Assembly (NCBI GenBank): GCA_032430995.1
Contig: GCA_032430995.1_3952.1
DNA length: 64,000 nucleotides
Origin: a phage
Direction: 5' to 3' (one strand)
The stretch's first letter is position 1; each line of letters opens with the position of its first letter. Positions 216-7,003 of this stretch are shown here, one piece after another. The notes below the pieces were generated by a model that worked only from the letters and a program-made list of their open reading frames with translations, did not search any database and was not told where the DNA came from. Made by a program: the position numbers and the translations under genes.

Positions 216-1631
216 ATGAGCGAATTATTTAAACATGCGCACCTTCATGCAGGTCGAACTGAAAATGGTGCTGTAAACCATACTTCATCAATGTCTGCTC
301 TTGTAGACTTTTACAAAGCTGCTGGTTCAAGCCGTAGCAACGTAGAAATCTTACCAGACCTGTTCTACAAAGCTTTGCGTGAGGATGTTGATGTTGCAGT
401 TCGTATTTTGCTTCATATGCGAGATGTACGAGAAGGTATGGGTGAGCGTAAAGCCTTCAGAACTGTTTTGCTTCAAGCAATTGAAGATAAAGTTTTAGAG
501 CCTACACAGGTTCTTCGCATTATGGATAAGATTGCAGAACTTGGTCGTTTTGATGACTTCAAAATCTTCGTGGGTACTTGTTTCGAGACAGATGCCTTCA
601 AACATTTAGAAGCAGCATTACTAGACCCTGCAACAGCAGGTTTGGCGGCTAAGTGGTTACCACGAGTCAAACCACGTCATAAGCAGTTTGTAAAACGTTT
701 CTGCAAGTTTGCCAACTTGAGTGAGAAAGAGTACCGCACACTGTTGTCTGCACTATCTGATACAGTTGAGCAAAAAATCTCTGCTAATGAGTTTGGTAAG
801 ATTGACTACAGTAAGATTCCTTCACTTGCTGCTGCACGTTACCAAAAACTGTTTAACCGTAAAGATGGAGAGCGTTACAAAGCTTACATCGAGTCCTTAT
901 CAAAAGGTGAGACTAAGATTAGCGCTGGTGCTGTTTACCCATACGATGTGATTAAATCTGTCAAGCATGGTAATGCAGATGTTGCTAATGAGCAGTGGAA
1001 AGCACTACCAAACTGGATGGCAGAAGGTGAAAACATCTTGTGTATGTCTGATGTATCAAGTTCAATGTCTTGGGTGAATTTTGGCTCCATTACTGCTCTG
1101 GATATTGGTGTATCACTTGCCTTGTATGTAGCAGAACGCAATACAGGTTGCTTTAAGAATGAGTTGATGGTTTATTCAACAAACCCTCACTTCATCGAAC
1201 TGAGTGGTGATTTACGAAACCGTCATCGTCAGGTGATGCGACACGTTGAATATGGCTCAACTAACTTACAAGCAGCTTTTGACCGCATTCTTGAGACAGG
1301 CAAAAGAAACAACTTGACTCAGAAAGATATGCCAAGTAAGCTTATCATCTTCTCCGATATGGAGTTTAATCAGGTTGATGGGGCTAACGGTCGTACAAAC
1401 TTTGAAGCAATTCAGAGTAAGTACAAAAAAGCTGGATATGAGATGCCACAACTGGTATTCTGGTACTTAGCAAACCGTAATGGTACTTGCGAAGTATCTG
1501 TTAAGGATAACGGTGTAGCAATGGTATCAGGGTTCTCTCCAGCCACTTTAAAAGCTCTGCTTGGTGGTGAGAAGTTTGACCCAATCAGTGTAATGCTCAA
1601 AGCAGTAATGATTGACCGTTATATCTGGTAA
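216..1631 (+). CDS. von Willebrand factor A (vWA) domain protein, DUF2828/TROVE-like
   Basis: 471 aa ORF with RBS; MIDAS-like DxSxS motif (DVSSSMS) and a second vWA-like block (LIIFSDMEF) in the C-terminal half; family name recalled from memory, not searched. Confidence 0.5.
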   Translation: MSELFKHAHLHAGRTENGAVNHTSSMSALVDFYKAAGSSRSNVEILPDLFYKALREDVDVAVRILLHMRDVREGMGERKAFRTVLLQAIEDKVLEPTQVLRIMDKIAELGRFDDFKIFVGTCFETDAFKHLEAALLDPATAGLAAKWLPRVKPRHKQFVKRFCKFANLSEKEYRTLLSALSDTVEQKISANEFGKIDYSKIPSLAAARYQKLFNRKDGERYKAYIESLSKGETKISAGAVYPYDVIKSVKHGNADVANEQWKALPNWMAEGENILCMSDVSSSMSWVNFGSITALDIGVSLALYVAERNTGCFKNELMVYSTNPHFIELSGDLRNRHRQVMRHVEYGSTNLQAAFDRILETGKRNNLTQKDMPSKLIIFSDMEFNQVDGANGRTNFEAIQSKYKKAGYEMPQLVFWYLANRNGTCEVSVKDNGVAMVSGFSPATLKALLGGEKFDPISVMLKAVMIDRYIW

Positions 1632-1739: not shown

Positions 1740-1769
1740 TTGACAACCACTAAAAAATAATGTTAAAGT
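1740..1769 (+). promoter_or_regulatory. sigma70-like promoter (TTGACA-N18-TAAAGT)
   Basis: same architecture as the promoter at 147-176; immediately upstream of first tRNA. Confidence 0.45.
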
Positions 1770-1795: not shown

Positions 1796-1872
1796 CTCTG
1801 TTTAGCTCAGCTTGGTAGAGCGTTCCGTTTGGGGCGGTAAGGCCGGAGGTTCAAGTCCTCCAACAGAGACCA
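1796..1872 (+). tRNA. tRNA-Pro (anticodon UGG)
   Basis: hand-folded cloverleaf: 7 bp acceptor stem, GGTTCAAGTCC T-arm, anticodon loop TTTGGGG, encoded CCA. Confidence 0.65.
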
Positions 1873-1879
1873 AATTAAT

Positions 1880-1957
1880 GTTCCAGTGGACAAAATGGTA
1901 AAGTCACCACTCTTTCAAAGTGGATATTTGAGGGTTCAAATCCCTTCTGGAACGCCA
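1880..1957 (+). tRNA. tRNA-Glu (anticodon UUC)
   Basis: acceptor GTTCCAG/CTGGAAC, anticodon stem CCACT/AGTGG with loop CTTTCAA, T-arm GGGTTCAAATCCC, CCA. Confidence 0.6.
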
Positions 1958-2047
1958 GTTTTGACAGAAGACCAATTACAGCAAACTTAATCTACTCATC
2001 TGAAAGTTAATCGGACAAAGAAGATATTTGGTCTGGTCATTAAGAAT

Positions 2048-2124
2048 TGCGGGTATAGAGAAAGGGCGTCTCACATGTCTCATTAGCATGGTATCGGCAG
2101 GTTCGACTCCTGCACCCGCCTCCA
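2048..2124 (+). tRNA. tRNA-Met/fMet/Ile2 (anticodon CAU)
   Basis: T-arm GCAGG-TTCGACT-CCTGC, anticodon stem CATGT/GCATG loop CTCATTA, CCA; first acceptor pair mismatched. Confidence 0.5.
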
Positions 2125-2207
2125 AATTTACAGAAGACCGTTTACAGCAATATTTATTAAATTTTTAGCGGAAAAATTGAAAGATACGGTCTGGTAATAC
2201 TAAACAT

Positions 2208-2284
2208 GGTTAGGAAGCACATAAGGTATGTGCGGTCGCCTGTTAAGCGAATGGCACAGGGTTCGAATCCCTGACTAACCGCCA
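2208..2284 (+). tRNA. tRNA-Asn (anticodon GUU)
   Basis: anticodon loop CTGTTAA, T-arm CAGGG-TTCGAAT-CCCTG, CCA. Confidence 0.6.
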
Positions 2285-2353
2285 AATTTAGGAGAGAAGC
2301 GATTGCTCACCGATTTGTAAGGTGCAAGTCCTTAGCCTGAATAGAAATCAAAT

Positions 2354-2441
2354 GTGTCGTTATCCCGTAGATGGTAGCGGTGGGGACTGTAAATCCCTTG
2401 TCATTGAGACTCGGTAGGTTCGACTCCTACACGGCACACCA
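2354..2441 (+). tRNA. tRNA-Tyr (anticodon GUA), long variable arm
   Basis: 88 nt; acceptor GTGTCGT/ACGGCAC, anticodon loop CTGTAAA, long variable arm, T-arm GGTTCGACTCC, CCA. Confidence 0.65.
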
Positions 2442-2447
2442 AATAAA

Positions 2448-2525
2448 GGTTATGTAGTTTAATCTGGTTAAAATACTCCCCTGTCACGGGAGATGATGAG
2501 GGTTCAAATCCCTTCGTAACCGCCA
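2448..2525 (+). tRNA. tRNA-Asp (anticodon GUC)
   Basis: anticodon stem CTCCC/GGGAG loop CTGTCAC, T-arm GGGTTCAAATCCC, CCA. Confidence 0.65.
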
Positions 2526-2708
2526 ATTTTGAGAGGGCTATTTAGCCCCTCCCTTAAAGGGTTCTTACGAGTATTCTTTAAAGGAGCAGAAGACCAAATA
2601 CAGCAAGTTATTTAAAATTTCAAGCCAATTTAATTTTGAAAAATTTAAAACTTGGTCTGGCTCAACAAATTTACAGAAGACCGTTTACAGCAAAACTTAA
2701 ACAATCTA

Positions 2709-2782
2709 TTTCTCCGGTAAAGAAAAGGCGAAGGTTCGATTCCTTCACTCGGCAGATGTCGAGTTGGTGTAATGGTAGCACT
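2709..2782 (+). other. tRNA-like element with permuted half order (3' half upstream of 5' half); possible permuted or pseudo tRNA
   Basis: 2709-2754 folds as anticodon-arm-like hairpin (TTTCT-CCGGTAA-AGAAA), T-arm GAAGG-TTCGATT-CCTTC and 3' acceptor strand ACTCGGC; 3 nt later 2758-2781 gives matching 5' acceptor strand GTCGAGT plus a D-arm; no normal upstream 5' half found. Confidence 0.25.
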
Positions 2783-2807
2783 TAAGATGATAAACAACGG
2801 TCTGGTA

Positions 2808-2950
2808 ATTATCTTTGTAGATAAGTTATTAAGCTTACCTGTGAGTATGCGACCACAAAGGGTGAAAGGGTAAATTCTAGATTTAAACCCAAAAAGGCAC
2901 ATCGCTACAGACCTTAAGCAAGTCTGGGTAGCTTATCTACAAAGATAATT
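2808..2950. repeat. perfect 19 bp inverted repeat (AATTATCTTTGTAGATAAG / CTTATCTACAAAGATAATT) flanking a 105 bp spacer
   Basis: arms at 2808-2826 and 2932-2950 are exact reverse complements; lies between the tRNA-like element and tRNA-Lys. Confidence 0.7.
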
Positions 2951-2954
2951 TAAT

Positions 2955-3030
2955 GGAAGTGTAGCAGAATGGTGATGCGGCAGACTTTTAATCTGACAGG
3001 CGATGGGTTCGAATCCCTCCACTTCTACCA
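2955..3030 (+). tRNA. tRNA-Lys (anticodon UUU, tentative)
   Basis: acceptor GGAAGTG/CACTTCT, T-loop GGGTTCGAATCCC, anticodon loop CTTTTAA, CCA; anticodon and T stems imperfect. Confidence 0.5.
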
Positions 3031-3108
3031 AATTCACCCTTAACTGAGAAACACCTGCGCGGCTGGAAACACCCACTCAACAGTTTCTCTAACTAGGGTA
3101 CTTATTCT

Positions 3109-3185
3109 GGTTCAGTCGCAGATAAGGTAATGCAAGGGTCTCATAAGCCCTATGAATGTGGGTTCGATTCCCATCTGAACCTCCA
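3109..3185 (+). tRNA. tRNA-Met (anticodon CAU)
   Basis: anticodon stem AGGGT/GCCCT loop CTCATAA, T-arm GGGTTCGATTCCC, CCA. Confidence 0.65.
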
Positions 3186-3186
3186 A

Positions 3187-3262
3187 GCTGGTATAGTTAA
3201 GAAGGTTATAACACTCCCCTGATAAGGGAACATCGGTGGTTCGATTCCACCTACCAGTACCA
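3187..3262 (+). tRNA. tRNA-Ile (anticodon GAU)
   Basis: anticodon loop CTGATAA, T-arm GGTGG-TTCGATT-CCACC, CCA. Confidence 0.65.
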
Positions 3263-3277
3263 ATTTCAATAAAGTTG

Positions 3278-3306
3278 TTGACATTGAGATGTGACTACTT
3301 TATAGT
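3278..3306 (+). promoter_or_regulatory. sigma70-like promoter (TTGACA-N17-TATAGT) internal to tRNA array
   Basis: consensus -35, 17 nt spacer, TATAGT -10. Confidence 0.5.
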
Positions 3307-3508
3307 AACCTTAGTTTTCGTTGCGTAGCGTCTATTTTGCAAATTTAAAATAAATGCAAACGACAATGTTTTTCTGGCAGTAGCTTGATAGGCTAAACAC
3401 CAGTGAGGTCTTCCAATCCCTCATCAAAGAATTTGGCGTACTCGCCCACGGTATGATTAATAAGGTGGGCATCTTTAAGGGCTTTCTAAGAGAGTCTTTA
3501 AAGATAAT

Positions 3509-3585
3509 GCACCCTTAGTTCAATTGGATAGAGCAACGGTCTTCTAAATCGTTAGTTACAGGTTCGAATCCTGTAGGGTGTACCA
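3509..3585 (+). tRNA. tRNA-Arg (anticodon UCU)
   Basis: acceptor GCACCCT/AGGGTGT, anticodon stem ACGGT/ATCGT loop CTTCTAA, T-arm CAGG-TTCGAAT-CCTG, CCA. Confidence 0.65.
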
Positions 3586-3727
3586 AATAGTTAGCAGATT
3601 ACTTAGACGGCCTTAGCGGGTCTTCCTGTAGGGAGGTGGTCTGTATCTCATGTTTTCCAGAACATGTAAATAATCTGAGAAGGAGCTTGACAGTGTTGAG
3701 ATAACAGGGTAAGCTTCGAATTATAAT

Positions 3728-3810
3728 ATGGGACGATGTTAAGACTCTAAGGCATGAGCAACGGCCTCCAAAACCGTTTCAAAGGGGTTCAACTCCTCCG
3801 TCCCATGCCA
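3728..3810 (+). tRNA. tRNA, anticodon uncertain (possibly Trp CCA; enlarged anticodon loop)
   Basis: perfect acceptor ATGGGAC/GTCCCAT, T-loop TTCAACT, CCA; anticodon stem AACGG/CCGTT closes a 9 nt loop CCTCCAAAA. Confidence 0.4.
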
Positions 3811-3823
3811 AAGTCTTATTAGG

Positions 3824-3911
3824 GGTAGGTAGCGGCTAATGGTAGCCAAACTGTCTTGAAAACAGTTGCCACTGTAGAGATACGGTGAGGGTTCGACTCC
3901 TTTACTTACCG
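3824..3911 (+). tRNA. tRNA-Ser (anticodon UGA), long variable arm
   Basis: 88 nt; acceptor GGTAGGT/ACTTACC, anticodon stem ACTGT/ACAGT loop CTTGAAA, long variable arm, T-arm GAGGG-TTCGACT-CCTTT. Confidence 0.65.
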
Positions 3912-4061
3912 CCTAATAAGATTTACTCCGTCCATGCTTGTTCGCATTGTCGGTTTATCCCTCGTGTATTGTCGTACACTGTCAAAGCACCTAGTAGGTG
4001 TCACGGAGAAGAGATAATATCAAGCTCTCCAAAGGTTCTAGTCACCGGATTAAACAAGACT

Positions 4062-4086
4062 ATGCAAAGACCTATTTAGGTCTTTT
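4062..4086 (+). terminator. intrinsic-terminator-like hairpin inside tRNA array
   Basis: AAGACC-TATTTA-GGTCTT stem-loop followed by a T run. Confidence 0.4.
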
Positions 4087-4167
4087 TAGAGGGCTTCTAA
4101 GGTTATTAGTCGCTTGTTGTGGAACCTTGTTGCTTAGGTTCTTAGAAGTTCTCTAAAAAGATTTAAT

Positions 4168-4245
4168 GGGAGATTGACGGTAATTGGTAAACCTACCATC
4201 CTTAGAAGTTGGTGTTTGAGGGTTCGAATCCCTTGTCTCCTACCA
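4168..4245 (+). tRNA. tRNA, anticodon apparently UAG (Leu-type) but short variable arm
   Basis: acceptor GGGAGAT/GTCTCCT, T-arm GAGGG-TTCGAAT-CCCTT, CCA; anticodon loop CTTAGAA; class I length. Confidence 0.4.
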
Positions 4246-4252
4246 AATTAAT

Positions 4253-4328
4253 GCAGGTGTAGCAAAATGGTTATGCGGCTGACTCTTAATCAGTAAGACG
4301 ATGGGTTCAATTCCCTCCACCTGTACCA
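4253..4328 (+). tRNA. tRNA-Lys (anticodon CUU)
   Basis: anticodon stem GCTGA/TCAGT loop CTCTTAA, T-loop GGGTTCAATTCCC, CCA. Confidence 0.55.
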
Positions 4329-4334
4329 AACATT

Positions 4335-4410
4335 GGGGATGTAGTTTACATGGTTAAAACATAAGTTTTGCAAACTTAAGTACAGGGTTCAATTCCCTGC
4401 TTCTCCACCA
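4335..4410 (+). tRNA. tRNA-Ala (anticodon UGC)
   Basis: anticodon stem TAAGT/ACTTA loop TTTGCAA, T-arm CAGGG-TTCAATT-CCCTG, CCA. Confidence 0.6.
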
Positions 4411-4416
4411 ATTAGT

Positions 4417-4491
4417 GCATCCATAGTTTAAACGGGAAAATTACAGTCTTCCAAACTGAGGTTGAGGGTTCGATTCCCTCTGGATGCTCCA
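4417..4491 (+). tRNA. tRNA-Gly (anticodon UCC)
   Basis: acceptor GCATCCA/TGGATGC, anticodon loop CTTCCAA, T-arm GAGGG-TTCGATT-CCCTC, CCA. Confidence 0.6.
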
Positions 4492-4497
4492 AACAAT

Positions 4498-4574
4498 GCT
4501 GCTTTCGTATAATTGGCTATTACACATCCCTTGTAAGGATGGAAATGCAGGTTCGAGTCCTGTGAGCAGCACCA
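4498..4574 (+). tRNA. tRNA-Thr (anticodon UGU)
   Basis: anticodon stem CATCC/GGATG loop CTTGTAA, T-arm GCAGG-TTCGAGT-CCTGT, CCA. Confidence 0.65.
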
Positions 4575-4670
4575 ATTCAGAGGTCAAGTGAAAGACCGCT
4601 TTGAGTCAACTGAAGACCGTAACAAATACCACGGAGTTGAGTTAGCGGCACAACTTCAGACCTCTTTCAT

Positions 4671-4745
4671 ACTCGCTTAGTTTATATGGTAAAACATCAC
4701 CCTTACAAGATGAAGAAAAAGGTTCAAGTCCTTTAGTGAGTACCA
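4671..4745 (+). tRNA. tRNA-Val (anticodon UAC)
   Basis: acceptor ACTCGCT/AGTGAGT, D-stem GTTT/AAAC, anticodon loop CTTACAA, T-arm AAAGG-TTCAAGT-CCTTT, CCA. Confidence 0.6.
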
Positions 4746-4746
4746 T

Positions 4747-4824
4747 GTTCCAGTATCCCAATTGGCAGAGGATGCAAGCTCAAACCTTGTATTAGTGACG
4801 GTTCGAATCCGTCTTGGAACACCA
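4747..4824 (+). tRNA. tRNA with Leu-type anticodon CAA, class I length
   Basis: acceptor GTTCCAG/TTGGAAC, anticodon stem GCAAG/CTTGT loop CTCAAAC, T-arm GACGG-TTCGAAT-CCGTC, CCA; no long variable arm. Confidence 0.5.
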
Positions 4825-4829
4825 ATTTT

Positions 4830-4905
4830 GCAGGATTAGTTCAAATGGAAAGAGCAACAGTCTACGAAGCTGTTAATAGGGGTTCGAATCCCTTATCCTG
4901 CGCCA
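4830..4905 (+). tRNA. tRNA-Arg (anticodon ACG)
   Basis: perfect acceptor GCAGGAT/ATCCTGC, anticodon loop CTACGAA, T-arm GGGGTTCGAATCCC, CCA. Confidence 0.7.
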
Positions 4906-4922
4906 GATAAAAAGGTGATACT

Positions 4923-5165
4923 ATGCAAACATTAACAGTAGTTGAACATGAAAACTGTGAGAGTATTGAGTTTGTCAGGGTCATTGGTGTTGAACACCAC
5001 ATTTTCTTAAAAGTGGGATACTTATGCGACCCCGCTAGAGTAGAAAGATTTATACGTGATTGTTTTGGTGGTAGACATCTGAAGAGTGTTATTTTTGAGA
5101 CAGTTTTACCAGAAGGTTTAGAAACGAATAATAACATTTACCTCCTTACGAGGATTAGACAATGA
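4923..5165 (+). CDS. hypothetical small protein inside tRNA array
   Basis: 80 aa ORF with AAGGTGA RBS 6 nt upstream of ATG; sits in a tRNA-free gap. Confidence 0.4.
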   Translation: MQTLTVVEHENCESIEFVRVIGVEHHIFLKVGYLCDPARVERFIRDCFGGRHLKSVIFETVLPEGLETNNNIYLLTRIRQ

Positions 5166-5719
5166 GATACTTAAAGTATGCTTCATGGATTTTCTTAGCT
5201 TTGTTAGAGCCATTTGCAGCAATCTTAGCAGTTATCTTAGCACCTTTTGTAGTTCCATTCTACAGTGAGAAGAAAGGACACTTACCTTTCGGGTTCAGAT
5301 GGATGGAGACATATGACAACCCAATTGATGGTGATGAAGGTCACGTTAAAAGATGGGCTAATATTAGATGGGTTGGTAAACTAGGTGTCTACATGCAAAG
5401 AGTCGGATGGCTCTGGAGAAACAAAGCTTATAACTTCTCTTACCATGTATTAGGAAGAGATGTAAGAGATGTTACTAAGTGGAAAGGTAATATCAACGTA
5501 AGTTCTAACCCTGAAGATAATCAGACTGGTTATCTCCTAATGTGGAACAGTAATGCTTGGGGATTATTCGCTTTTATCCCATCAATTAAAGTCTTCGGTA
5601 AACAGTTTTACTGGAGAATTTATGTTGGATGGAAACTTAAAAGTGTTGTCCCAGAAGAAAGAGCATTCTCAAGGGAAAGAGTTATGTTGGCATTCTTTAT
5701 TCATCCACTGAGAAAGTAA
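5162..5719 (+). CDS. hypothetical membrane protein
   Basis: 185 aa ORF overlapping upstream stop (ATGA); hydrophobic N-terminal segment; Trp/Tyr-rich. Confidence 0.5.
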   Translation: MRYLKYASWIFLALLEPFAAILAVILAPFVVPFYSEKKGHLPFGFRWMETYDNPIDGDEGHVKRWANIRWVGKLGVYMQRVGWLWRNKAYNFSYHVLGRDVRDVTKWKGNINVSSNPEDNQTGYLLMWNSNAWGLFAFIPSIKVFGKQFYWRIYVGWKLKSVVPEERAFSRERVMLAFFIHPLRK

Positions 5720-5727
5720 AGATTTAA

Positions 5728-5803
5728 AGGGGATTAGTTTACAAGGTTAAAACCTCGGTCTTTGAAATCGAAGAAGTTGGTTCAATTCCAACATCCCCCG
5801 CCA
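5728..5803 (+). tRNA. tRNA-Gln (anticodon UUG)
   Basis: D-stem GTTT/AAAC, anticodon stem TCGGT/ATCGA loop CTTTGAA, T-arm GTTGG-TTCAATT-CCAAC, CCA. Confidence 0.6.
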
Positions 5804-5805
5804 AT

Positions 5806-5884
5806 GCTCCATTACTCCAATTGGCAGAGAGGCCAGACTTAAAATCTGTGTTATGTATCGGTTCGAATCCGATATGGAGTACCA
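5806..5884 (+). tRNA. tRNA with Leu-type anticodon UAA, class I length
   Basis: acceptor GCTCCAT/ATGGAGT, anticodon loop CTTAAAA, T-arm ATCGG-TTCGAAT-CCGAT, CCA. Confidence 0.5.
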
Positions 5885-5889
5885 AATTT

Positions 5890-5965
5890 AGCGGTATAGC
5901 ATAACTGGCAATGCAGCAGTCTCTGAAGCTGTCCTATTAAGGTTCAAATCCTTATGCCGCTGCCA
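5890..5965 (+). tRNA. tRNA-Gln (anticodon CUG)
   Basis: D-stem GCAT/ATGC, anticodon stem GCAGT/GCTGT loop CTCTGAA, T-arm TAAGG-TTCAAAT-CCTTA, CCA. Confidence 0.55.
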
Positions 5966-5996
5966 CTTCTAAGGATTCTTACGAGAGTCCTTAAAT

Positions 5997-6072
5997 GTGG
6001 CCTTATCATAAATGGTAATGACCCATGCTGTGAACATGGTCTATACGGGTTCAAATCCCGTAGGTCACCCCA
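5997..6072 (+). tRNA. tRNA-His (anticodon GUG)
   Basis: anticodon stem CCATG/CATGG loop CTGTGAA, T-arm CGGG-TTCAAAT-CCCG, CCA. Confidence 0.65.
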
Positions 6073-6077
6073 ATTTA

Positions 6078-6154
6078 TAGTCCAAGTAGCTTATATGGTT
6101 AAAGCGCGTGTCTGAAAAACATGAGAAGAGGGTTCAAATCCCACTGGACTACCA
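6078..6154 (+). tRNA. tRNA-Phe (anticodon GAA)
   Basis: acceptor TAGTCCA/TGGACTA, anticodon stem CGTGT/ACATG loop CTGAAAA, T-loop GGGTTCAAATCCC. Confidence 0.6.
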
Positions 6155-6170
6155 ATTTCAAAGGTGCTTA

Positions 6171-6905
6171 ATGAAAGAGATGACAGAACAAGGTAAGGAG
6201 ATTTTCAATCTCTTAAAAACCGGTAAAGGGTTTTCTAACCCCCTTATTACTGGTGCAGCAGTTCTCGGTGGAACCGTAGCTGCCTCTACATCACTTGTAA
6301 GCTCTATTAGCTCTGTATCAGACCCTACAGTAAAGGATAAGCTTGTTGCTGCTGGACTTACAACAGTTCTGCTTAACAGCTTTACCACGAGTCTGACAAG
6401 CACTACATCAACCACCAAAACACTAACAGATTACGGTCAAAAGTCCATTGATGAGTTTTCATCACGTATGCAGGTAGCAAAAGGTTACTCTAATGTTATG
6501 GGTGCAGCAGGTGAACAAGTTGGCTGTACACCATTTAGTGGTATTATGGGTGTTGCTACAGAGTATGGTCAAAAAGCTATTGATACGATTAACAGTGCAC
6601 TAGACGGTGTTAATGGTGTGTTAAGTGACTTACAAGACGCTATTGACAAAGGTCTTGATACTATTTCTGATTTAGCTAACCAAGCTGTTAGTAAGATTAA
6701 TGAAGGTATCTCAAAGATTACAGCTTATGCAGATGAAGTTGTGCAGATGATTGAAGAAGAAGCTGCTCTTATTGCAGAGTACCTTAAAACGAATATCAAT
6801 GGGTTCTTAGCAGGTATCTTACCAGACTGGTTTGATGATGCTTGTAAAACTGGTGTAATTGACACTATTGCAACACCAGAAATGAAGAGCGCATTACAGA
6901 AATAA
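6171..6905 (+). CDS. hypothetical protein (Ser/Thr-rich N-terminal half, predicted helical C-terminal half)
   Basis: ORF track frame 6108-6905 trimmed to ATG 6171 because 6078-6154 is tRNA-Phe; RBS AAAGG upstream. Confidence 0.5.
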   Translation: MKEMTEQGKEIFNLLKTGKGFSNPLITGAAVLGGTVAASTSLVSSISSVSDPTVKDKLVAAGLTTVLLNSFTTSLTSTTSTTKTLTDYGQKSIDEFSSRMQVAKGYSNVMGAAGEQVGCTPFSGIMGVATEYGQKAIDTINSALDGVNGVLSDLQDAIDKGLDTISDLANQAVSKINEGISKITAYADEVVQMIEEEAALIAEYLKTNINGFLAGILPDWFDDACKTGVIDTIATPEMKSALQK

Positions 6906-6906
6906 T

Positions 6907-6999
6907 GGAAGATTAACCCTAAAAGGTAAGGGAGCAGTTTGCTAAACTGCCAGTAGCTGAGAAATCGGTGTACCAGTTCAAGTCTGGTATCTTCCTCCA
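6907..6999 (+). tRNA. tRNA-Ser (anticodon GCU), long variable arm
   Basis: 93 nt; perfect acceptor GGAAGAT/ATCTTCC, anticodon stem GCAGT/ACTGC loop TTGCTAA, long variable arm, T-arm ACCAG-TTCAAGT-CTGGT, CCA. Confidence 0.7.
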
Positions 7000-7003
7000 A
7001 TTT

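Follow-up and report, generated by a model that had tools for sequence, protein, structure and literature searches.

We analyzed a 64,000-nt stretch of phage DNA (GenBank assembly GCA_032430995.1, contig GCA_032430995.1_3952.1; called the window below), a Felixounavirus (Felix O1-like) genome that carries a tRNA-like element with its parts in an unusual order at positions 2709-2781, inside a tRNA array. A closing stem around the element, the motif UACAGCAA at this stem, three sister modules in the array and the gene for a Ro60-like protein upstream identify 2709-2781 as the tRNA-like domain of a Y-RNA-like noncoding RNA (ncRNA), which we call M4. We put at roughly three in four the probability that the interior of this ~130-nt RNA is such a domain and that its partner is probably the Ro60-like protein encoded upstream. 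M4 represents a previously undescribed, widespread RNA subfamily tied to Ro60-like proteins of the DUF2828 type. An earlier, sequence-only reading of the same DNA had left three options for the element, namely, a permuted tRNA gene, a rearranged pseudo-tRNA and a tRNA-like regulatory structure, and the third turned out to be the correct one.

M4 occupies positions 2675-2806 (132 nt) on the plus strand. Its two ends are paired: the 5' strand of the closing stem, AGACCGTT (RNA AGACCGUU; 2678-2685), forms 8 bp with the 3' strand, AACGGTCT (RNA AACGGUCU; 2796-2803), which is followed by GG. The single-stranded, invariant motif UACAGCAA stands directly after the 5' strand (2686-2693). The interior holds four hairpins in the order V-T-AS-D, all of them on the plus strand. 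The variable-arm-like (V) hairpin reads UUUCU-CCGGUAA-AGAAA (2709-2725) and the T arm GAAGG-UUCGAUU-CCUUC (2730-2746). In the acceptor-like (AS) hairpin (2747-2764), ACUCGGC (2747-2753) and GUCGAGU (2758-2764) form 7 bp around the loop AGAU, with no CCA. The last segment (2765-2781) consists of U8-G9 and the D arm GUGU-AAUGGUA-GCAC (2767-2781). The minimum-free-energy fold recovered the 8-bp closing helix and all four hairpins together; it also contained an inner CUUA/UAAG helix, which was unsupported by the RNAalifold alignment described below. The hairpin, T arm, acceptor strands and D arm listed in the sequence-only reading were thus all found where it had placed them, and the 3' acceptor strand indeed precedes the 5' strand. 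The "anticodon arm" of that reading, by contrast, corresponds to the V hairpin of YrlA-type RNAs, with a loop that varies among relatives. The C at position 33, which it had flagged as a reason for caution, was confirmed and counts against a canonical anticodon loop.

Conventional tRNA prediction did not account for the element. ARAGORN called 26 tRNA genes in the window, at 1796-7079, and called neither a tRNA nor a transfer-messenger RNA (tmRNA) from the end of tRNA-Asp (2525) to the start of tRNA-Lys (2955), so that the predictor run proposed by the sequence-only reading found no conventional tRNA at this place. The Rfam tRNA model matched in its 3' part only, over 2697-2747, with 22 bits (gathering score, 29).

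We then examined how the element is conserved. Positions 2526-2955 are identical (100%) to Escherichia coli O157 typing phage 15 and were matched by 252 phage records, and 58 of 60 Ounavirinae records, drawn evenly across the match ranking, retain the element. The AS hairpin is kept in other Ounavirinae by compensatory changes, with ACTCGGC/GTCGAGT here, ACCCTTC/GAAGGGT in Citrobacter phage Mordin and ACACGT/GCGTGT in Escherichia phage phiSUSP1; the acceptor complementarity, for which a comparison with related phages had been suggested, is therefore conserved. The T and D arms are near-invariant among these three phages, which belong to different genera. The V-hairpin loop reads CCGGUAA, CUGGUAA, CUUAUAA or CUAUAAA among relatives and has a different sequence in Mordin, and the V regions are quite different where other phages share the scaffold.

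Covariation was assessed with RNAalifold on 36 diverse relatives (alignment A3). The prediction comprised the closing stem, T arm, AS hairpin and D arm, with two-sided changes at 19 of 21 pairs, in a set selected for a perfect closing stem and AS hairpin and for at least four of five T-stem pairs; this selection inflates the covariation counts of the two helices required to be perfect. Neither the D arm nor the 15:48 pair entered the selection. The D stem covaries nonetheless (one of its pairs is C-G in 20 relatives and U-A in 15), and the Levitt pair behaves likewise across the family, G15 being accompanied by C48 in 10 of 10 cases and A15 by U48 in 21 of 31. U8, A14, G18-G19 and the T-loop sequence UUCRANY are also conserved across the family. 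A covariance model, R1, was built from the same 36 sequences; it matched M4 over its full length with 88.5 bits, M4 itself being among the training sequences. Moreover, R1 found copies on which it had not been trained, beside the homologous protein gene, in Mycobacterium phage Krypton555 (72 bits, with the motif variant CACAGCAA), Cronobacter phage S13 (62 and 42 bits) and Sinorhizobium phage phiM19 (59 and 48 bits).

A scan of IMG/VR for TACAGCAA followed after 20 to 50 nt by GGTTCGANTCC yielded at least 120 viral loci. Among 127 listed pattern matches, 65 had a T stem with a perfect hairpin directly after it as well as a closing stem. Such a hairpin directly followed 63 of 125 motif-preceded T arms; for the remaining T arms of these listed loci, the count was 96 of 574. 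A 7-bp closing stem was present in 75 of 120 listed matches, compared to 22% when the 5' strand was shuffled. The AS stem has the length of a tRNA acceptor stem, 7 to 8 bp, in 44 of 72 family members. These sequence patterns argue that the V-T-AS-D arrangement is under selection.

The same RNA architecture adjoins homologues of the Ro-like gene, on the same strand, in phages of many bacterial phyla. This linkage was approached from both sides. On the protein side, we collected 80 loci from bacterial genomes and metagenome-assembled genomes (514,678 nt), picked by protein homology alone. TACAGCAA occurred there 75 times on the gene's strand (in 51 loci) versus 11 times on the opposite strand (in 9 loci), with ~8 expected per strand. 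The asymmetry was similar for modules with a 7-bp stem beside the motif (56 versus 4) and for R1 matches at an E value of ≤0.001 (29 versus 0), and the distance from module to gene was at most a few hundred bases in most cases. Ten unrelated phage loci were also retrieved via the protein; TACAGCAA was present on the gene's strand in 10 of 10 and on the opposite strand in none. In almost all cases, a stem strand of 7 to 10 bp lay 0 to 1 nt 5' of the motif, with its complement 40 to 130 nt 3' of it, and the stems all differed in sequence. On the RNA side, a protein homologue was found in 49 of the 120 IMG/VR loci listed, in stretches with a median of 7.3 kb.

In the window, the presumed protein partner is encoded by the open reading frame (ORF) 216-1631 (plus strand; 471 aa; Pfam DUF2828 and DUF7788/vWA), and M4 starts 1,044 nt past its stop codon on the same strand. 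An AlphaFold model built from 34 homologues had a predicted local distance difference test (pLDDT) score of 87. Searched with Foldseek against the PDB, it gave Ro60/TROVE proteins for all ten best matches, over the full length and with a probability of 1.0 (E values, 3e-8 to 1e-5; TM-scores, 0.50 to 0.63); Xenopus Ro60, Deinococcus Rsr and the Ro60 of Thermus phage phiLo were among them. The product of ORF 216-1631 is thus predicted to adopt the Ro60 fold. It had no PADLOC match. Homologues were found in 710 phage records, several of them annotated as "Ro-like RNA binding protein," from phages of Enterobacteria, Vibrio, Campylobacter, Listeria, Staphylococcus, Bacillus and Mycobacterium, among other hosts, and the gene lies beside tRNA arrays in Felixounavirus, Bacillus, Listeria, Campylobacter and Cronobacter phages. 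In the Felixounavirus Bas63, gp130 has a Ro60-like structure, is encoded directly upstream of tRNA genes and counters the Ppl defence (PMC11482910, 2024 preprint). Its authors only speculate that the tRNA annotations may include Y RNAs (PMC11482910). Judged by position and phage type, ORF 216-1631 and the gene for gp130 are taken to be the same gene. A few kilobases from the Ro-like gene, a gene annotated as tRNA splicing ligase (RtcB type by our reading) was observed in a Listeria phage (6808-8019) and an RNA ligase 2 annotation in Aeromonas phage 4_4572 (9071-9353); such neighbors are consistent with a role in RNA repair.

M4 is one of four copies of a shared unit, ACAGAAGACC-NNN-UACAGCAA ... 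NNN'-GGUCUGG, within the array. The other three, also on the plus strand, are short: M1 (1966-2037; stem AGACCAA/TTGGTCT; R1, 31.3 bits), M2 (2132-2195; stem AGACCGT/ACGGTCT; R1, 31.8 bits) and M3 (2588-2660; stem AGACCAA/TTGGTCT). The variable stem positions covary among the four, with AA/UU in two and GU/AC in the other two. M1 to M3 lie in spacers between neighboring tRNAs and have small, AU-rich interiors, and the tRNA-like domain is present in M4 alone. By analogy with YrlB, the shorter companion RNA of YrlA that lacks a full tRNA-like domain, M1 to M3 are likely smaller Y-like RNAs.

The closest known counterparts of M4 are the YrlA RNAs, which have the order V-T-AS-D and adjoin Ro60 genes (PMC4201824) and which have been likened to circularly permuted tRNAs in which the acceptor stem is closed (bioRxiv 10.1101/312249). 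M4 shares with YrlA (Rfam RF02553; crystal structure 6CU1) this order of hairpins, the tRNA-like T and D arms and the loop-closed acceptor stem. In both, the paired 5' and 3' ends form a stem that bears the protein-binding module, which is putative in M4; both are encoded within 4 kb of, and on the same strand as, the gene for a Ro60-fold protein (a HEAT ring with vWA); and the 15:48 pair covaries in both families. The module itself differs, being a stem (7 to 10 bp in relatives) with UACAGCAA in M4 and GNCGAAN0-1G in a bulged helix in YrlA, and so does the partner protein, with DUF2828 for M4 and Pfam TROVE for YrlA. Moreover, the four modules of the M4 system are interleaved with tRNA genes, unlike YrlA. 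The characteristics of YrlA also include binding to Ro60/Rsr and modification by TruB and DusA. The Rfam YrlA model matched the T-AS-D core of the Krypton555 copy with 38.3 bits (gathering score, 69), which ties the M4 group to the YrlA group. The YrlA survey of Chen et al. (2014) was restricted to genomes with an annotated TROVE protein (PMC4201824).

A phage-encoded Ro60 with nearby Y-like RNAs has a precedent in Thermus phage phiLo, for which Ro60 with Yrl1 and Yrl2 has been described (PMC12135203; PDB 9KOP). The structure 9KOP was the best fold match to ORF 216-1631, with 16% identity in the structural alignment. The phiLo RNAs were found by a CGAA motif, and the passages that describe them speak of a stem-bulge-stem structure and of no tRNA-like domain, unlike M4. 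The literature searched contained no description of a UACAGCAA RNA family or of Y RNAs in Felix O1-like phages, and a search for the motif string returned unrelated primer sequences only.

Several observations weigh against the identification of M4 as a Y-like RNA with a Ro60-like partner, in addition to the selection behind the stem counts given above. Some concern the RNA. M4 does not fold with significantly lower energy than shuffled sequence (z = -1.4), and the A-C that it has at 15:48 is no canonical Levitt pair. The Rfam YrlA model had no match at an E value of ≤10 in 2560-2960, and the YrlA 5' motif GNCGAAN0-1G is absent from 2660-2708, where UACAGCAA takes the equivalent position. The sole literal match to GNCGAAN0-1G, GGCGAAG at 2727-2733, reaches across the boundary into the T stem and lacks conservation in Mordin and phiSUSP1. 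Others concern the protein. It belongs to DUF2828 and not to Pfam TROVE, and phmmer of ORF 216-1631 against the PDB returned no Ro60, so that the relationship had to be recognized by fold comparison. Finally, gp130 by itself, supplied by a plasmid or by T7, counteracts Ppl and rescues T7 on Ppl hosts (PMC11482910), and the anti-Ppl activity thus does not require these RNAs.

Among the alternatives, a nicked, two-piece form of M4 fares best; it is a refinement of the Y-like reading and, to our judgment, unlikely. It would arise by an RNase P cut 5' of G2758, with the upstream piece being trimmed and provided with CCA; such a form could engage CCA-dependent factors or even be aminoacylated. Both cleavage by RNase P and the addition of CCA were shown for Mycobacterium smegmatis YrlA, and the 7-bp AS stem of M4 is a feature that Chen et al. 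linked to RNase P cleavage (PMC4201824). This stem, together with the G-CCA that Mordin, like Michonne, encodes directly after the 3' acceptor strand, would allow for such processing, and an Aeromonas phage has a non-permuted version with a free ...ACCA end. Across the family, the AS loop begins with (N)CCA in 12 of 72 members, where ~2 would be expected, and these loops are longer. The loop in the window, however, has only 4 nt (AGAU) and no CCA, which would favor a closed hairpin, as would the UACG tetraloop on the 6-bp AS stem of Suspvirus and Sf14 and the presence of tetraloops in 22 of 72 family members; moreover, pair 3:70 is C-G, without the alanine identity element of tmRNA. As a separate observation, (N)CCA after the 3' acceptor strand was seen in Mordin, in Michonne and in IMG/VR loci such as L023, L028, L077, L093 and L112, a sequence feature which suggests that these members may be opened to expose a tRNA-like CCA end.

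We consider it improbable that M1 to M4 act independently of the Ro-like protein, as cis-acting processing or stability elements of the tRNA operon or as tRNA decoys. They do lie between tRNAs without a promoter or terminator of their own, and the effect of gp130 on Ppl without these RNAs would fit such a role. Yet the modules track the protein gene and not tRNA arrays: in Staphylococcus phage 6ec, three modules directly follow the gene and the only tRNA lies ~1.4 kb further downstream, and only one tRNA was called in the Aeromonas phage stretch that carries at least eight modules. The strong strand and proximity bias in the protein-selected loci likewise speaks against this explanation.

Far less probable is a nonfunctional remnant of two adjacent tRNA genes, one contributing the T arm and 3' strand and the other the 5' strand and D arm. 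The element does lie inside a tRNA array, R1 gave weak matches on tRNA pairs in the window (E values, 0.002 to 0.07), and dimeric tRNAs can mimic the pattern, a type of false positive for which Chen et al. screened (PMC4201824). A remnant would nevertheless hardly explain why the AS hairpin is maintained across genera by compensatory changes, why 58 of the 60 sampled Ounavirinae records keep the element or why the same architecture, motif and closing stem recur in unrelated phages, with a covarying 15:48 pair. Since the stems covary, the element is not decaying, and the rearranged pseudo-tRNA of the sequence-only reading was discarded.

We gave the least credence of all to a true permuted tRNA gene, the transcript of which would be circularized or ligated and opened at the acceptor loop to give tRNA-Thr with the anticodon GGU, as in Cyanidioschyzon merolae. 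The 3' half does precede the 5' half, the acceptor strands are complementary, and the GenBank record of phage REP5 annotates a 131-nt tRNA-Thr(GGT) over the element. The putative anticodon loop, however, has C at position 33 and is not conserved, the anticodon positions reading GGU, GGU, UAU and AUA in close relatives and differing again in Mordin, and V regions that are quite different sit on the same scaffold in other phages. The hairpin is nine bases away from any anticodon-stem-like pairing, and of the seven positions in the upstream 5' strand that the annotation of REP5 would require, only five pair. Furthermore, neither ARAGORN nor Rfam called a tRNA here, and the array already includes a tRNA-Thr(UGU). 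Soma and colleagues are said to have described circularly permuted tRNA genes, in 2007, in C. merolae and other organisms. Such genes resemble M4 in that the 3' half comes first and the acceptor stem starts as a closed loop; unlike M4, they have real anticodon arms and yield decoding tRNAs via a circular intermediate and eukaryotic or archaeal splicing enzymes. No bulge-helix-bulge splicing endonuclease pathway is known in bacteria, which counts against maturation of this kind.

Three further candidates were rejected. A two-piece tmRNA resembles M4 in that the 5' acceptor strand comes downstream of the T arm and 3' acceptor strand, but M4 has a complete D arm, neither a tag reading frame nor pseudoknots were recognized in it, the locus received no call from ARAGORN or from the Rfam tmRNA and tmRNA_permuted models, and it has C-G in place of G3-U70 and no CCA. 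A natural permuted intron-exon arrangement, in which halves of a group I intron would flank the two tRNA halves, was set aside, with no Rfam intron in 2560-2960 and no G before the would-be 3' splice site. A protein-coding explanation failed likewise, as the ORFs 2636-2785 (plus strand) and 2645-2902 (minus strand) had no Pfam match and relatives carry indels of 4, 6 and 8 nt inside both.

If M4 is a Y-like RNA, as we favor, it would probably be cotranscribed with the tRNA array and set free by nucleases that process tRNAs. A consensus scan found no promoter-like or terminator-like site on the plus strand right beside M4 and found two sigma-70-like promoter matches, as pattern matches only, 5' of the whole tRNA/ncRNA array (1650-1678 and 1740-1769, plus strand); we thus infer that M1 to M4 are probably excised from a tRNA precursor. 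The terminal stem (8 bp here) with UACAGCAA would be the binding site of the Ro60-like protein. The interior would amount to a tRNA with a loop-closed acceptor stem, in which the connection to the terminal stem replaces the anticodon arm, and this tRNA-shaped domain may recruit a tRNA-recognizing factor or mimic its substrate. By analogy with YrlA and other Y RNAs, M4 might tether or gate the Ro-like ring, and the RNA-protein complex could act on RNA during infection, in surveillance or quality control, repair or decay. The gene neighborhoods fit this proposal, because the Ro-like gene sits beside tRNA arrays and ligase genes.

These results provide concrete candidate RNA partners for the Ro60-like anti-defence protein of Felix O1-type phages (gp130 of Bas63) and point to a family of small phage RNAs, widespread and unannotated, that has a simple signature open to searches and to mutation, namely, the stem, UACAGCAA and, in some members, the tRNA-like domain. 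They would extend the tRNA mimicry of Y RNAs to a second Ro-like branch with a different recognition motif, and comparison of the two branches should reveal how the protein ring reads RNA. They would also explain recurrent mis-annotations. Over-long tRNAs are annotated in phage REP5 ("tRNA-Thr," 131 nt, 701-831) and in Cronobacter phage S13 ("tRNA-Ser," 121 nt, and "tRNA-OTHER," 113 nt, 5896-6138); they overlap R1 matches and are probably mis-annotated Y-like RNAs.

The short modules also resemble the Class I RNAs of Dictyostelium (Rfam RF01414). Both have a terminal stem starting with G-C (~6 to 8 bp in Class I RNAs), the 5' strand of which is directly followed by (CC)UUACAGCAA, and in both the interior is variable and the 3' terminus has the form ...C-UG. 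The lengths are 55 to 75 nt for the short phage modules and 42 to 65 nt for Class I RNAs (132 nt for M4). The 11-nt Class I motif CCUUACAGCAA matches GUUUACAGCAA of the window at 9 of 11 positions, with the stem present. The Rfam Class I model gave scores below its gathering score of 41.5, with 16.6 bits for M3 (2592-2659) and 25.7 to 29.6 bits for three modules of Aeromonas phage 4_4572 (3140-3193, 3598-3660 and 3844-3898). Unlike the phage modules, Class I RNAs are eukaryotic and have their own Dictyostelium upstream sequence element (DUSE) promoter, and the single protein with demonstrated direct binding to them is Rnp1A, which has an RNA recognition motif; unlike M4, they lack a tRNA-like domain. 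Pfam describes DUF2828 as present in eukaryotes, too. We regard it as a speculative and rather doubtful idea that RNAs with a stem and UACAGCAA are the cognate RNAs of the whole DUF2828 branch of Ro60-like proteins, with Class I RNAs as eukaryotic members or descendants bound by an amoebal DUF2828 protein; the likeness of the short modules could reflect deep homology or convergence. Class I RNAs were reported as unique to dictyostelids, and direct binding was shown for only one of four associated proteins (PMC7919456).

Variants of the modules were observed in other phages. In Aeromonas phage 4_4572, at least eight short modules with a stem and (Y)NCAGCAA lie at 2990-3960, directly upstream of the Ro-like gene; their motif variants include UUCAGCAA, UGCAGCAA and UCCAGCAA, from which the conserved core of the motif may be CAGCAA. 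The same phage encodes, at 1494-1610, a tRNA-like RNA in normal, non-permuted order, with an acceptor stem, D arm, T arm and 3' ACCA and with UUACAGCAA held in an enlarged anticodon arm (Rfam tRNA model, 49 bits over 117 nt). This RNA joins the same two modules in the opposite order. In Yersinia phage P778, the counterpart of M4 (6785-6938) has the stem, the motif UUCAGCAA, the V hairpin and the T arm and appears to have no clear AS hairpin and D arm; going by this sequence, the tRNA-like domain is evidently reducible to the T arm.

Three further features were observed in the array. Trp is the sole amino acid without a called tRNA, and 3730-3804, which ARAGORN did not call, is a probable non-canonical tRNA-Trp (Rfam tRNA-Sec model, 23 bits). 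In this candidate, a C-A mismatch closes the anticodon loop CUCCAAA, the D region is odd and a 3' CCA is present; its anticodon stem covaries (AACGG/CCGTT versus GTAAG/CTTAC in relatives). Weak Rfam matches to tmRNA_permuted (29 bits) and tmRNA (16 to 18 bits) were found at 3204-3388 and 3320-3508 of the window, in another array gap without a called tRNA, and at 7009-7149 of Yersinia phage P778. Directly 3' of M4, a hairpin of ~150 nt (2804-2954), absent or replaced in some Felixounavirus records and without an Rfam match, has a basal stem of ~22 bp with several compensatory changes in Mooglevirus and Suspvirus; its inner hairpin loop, CUUAAGCAA, is similar to the UACAGCAA motif.

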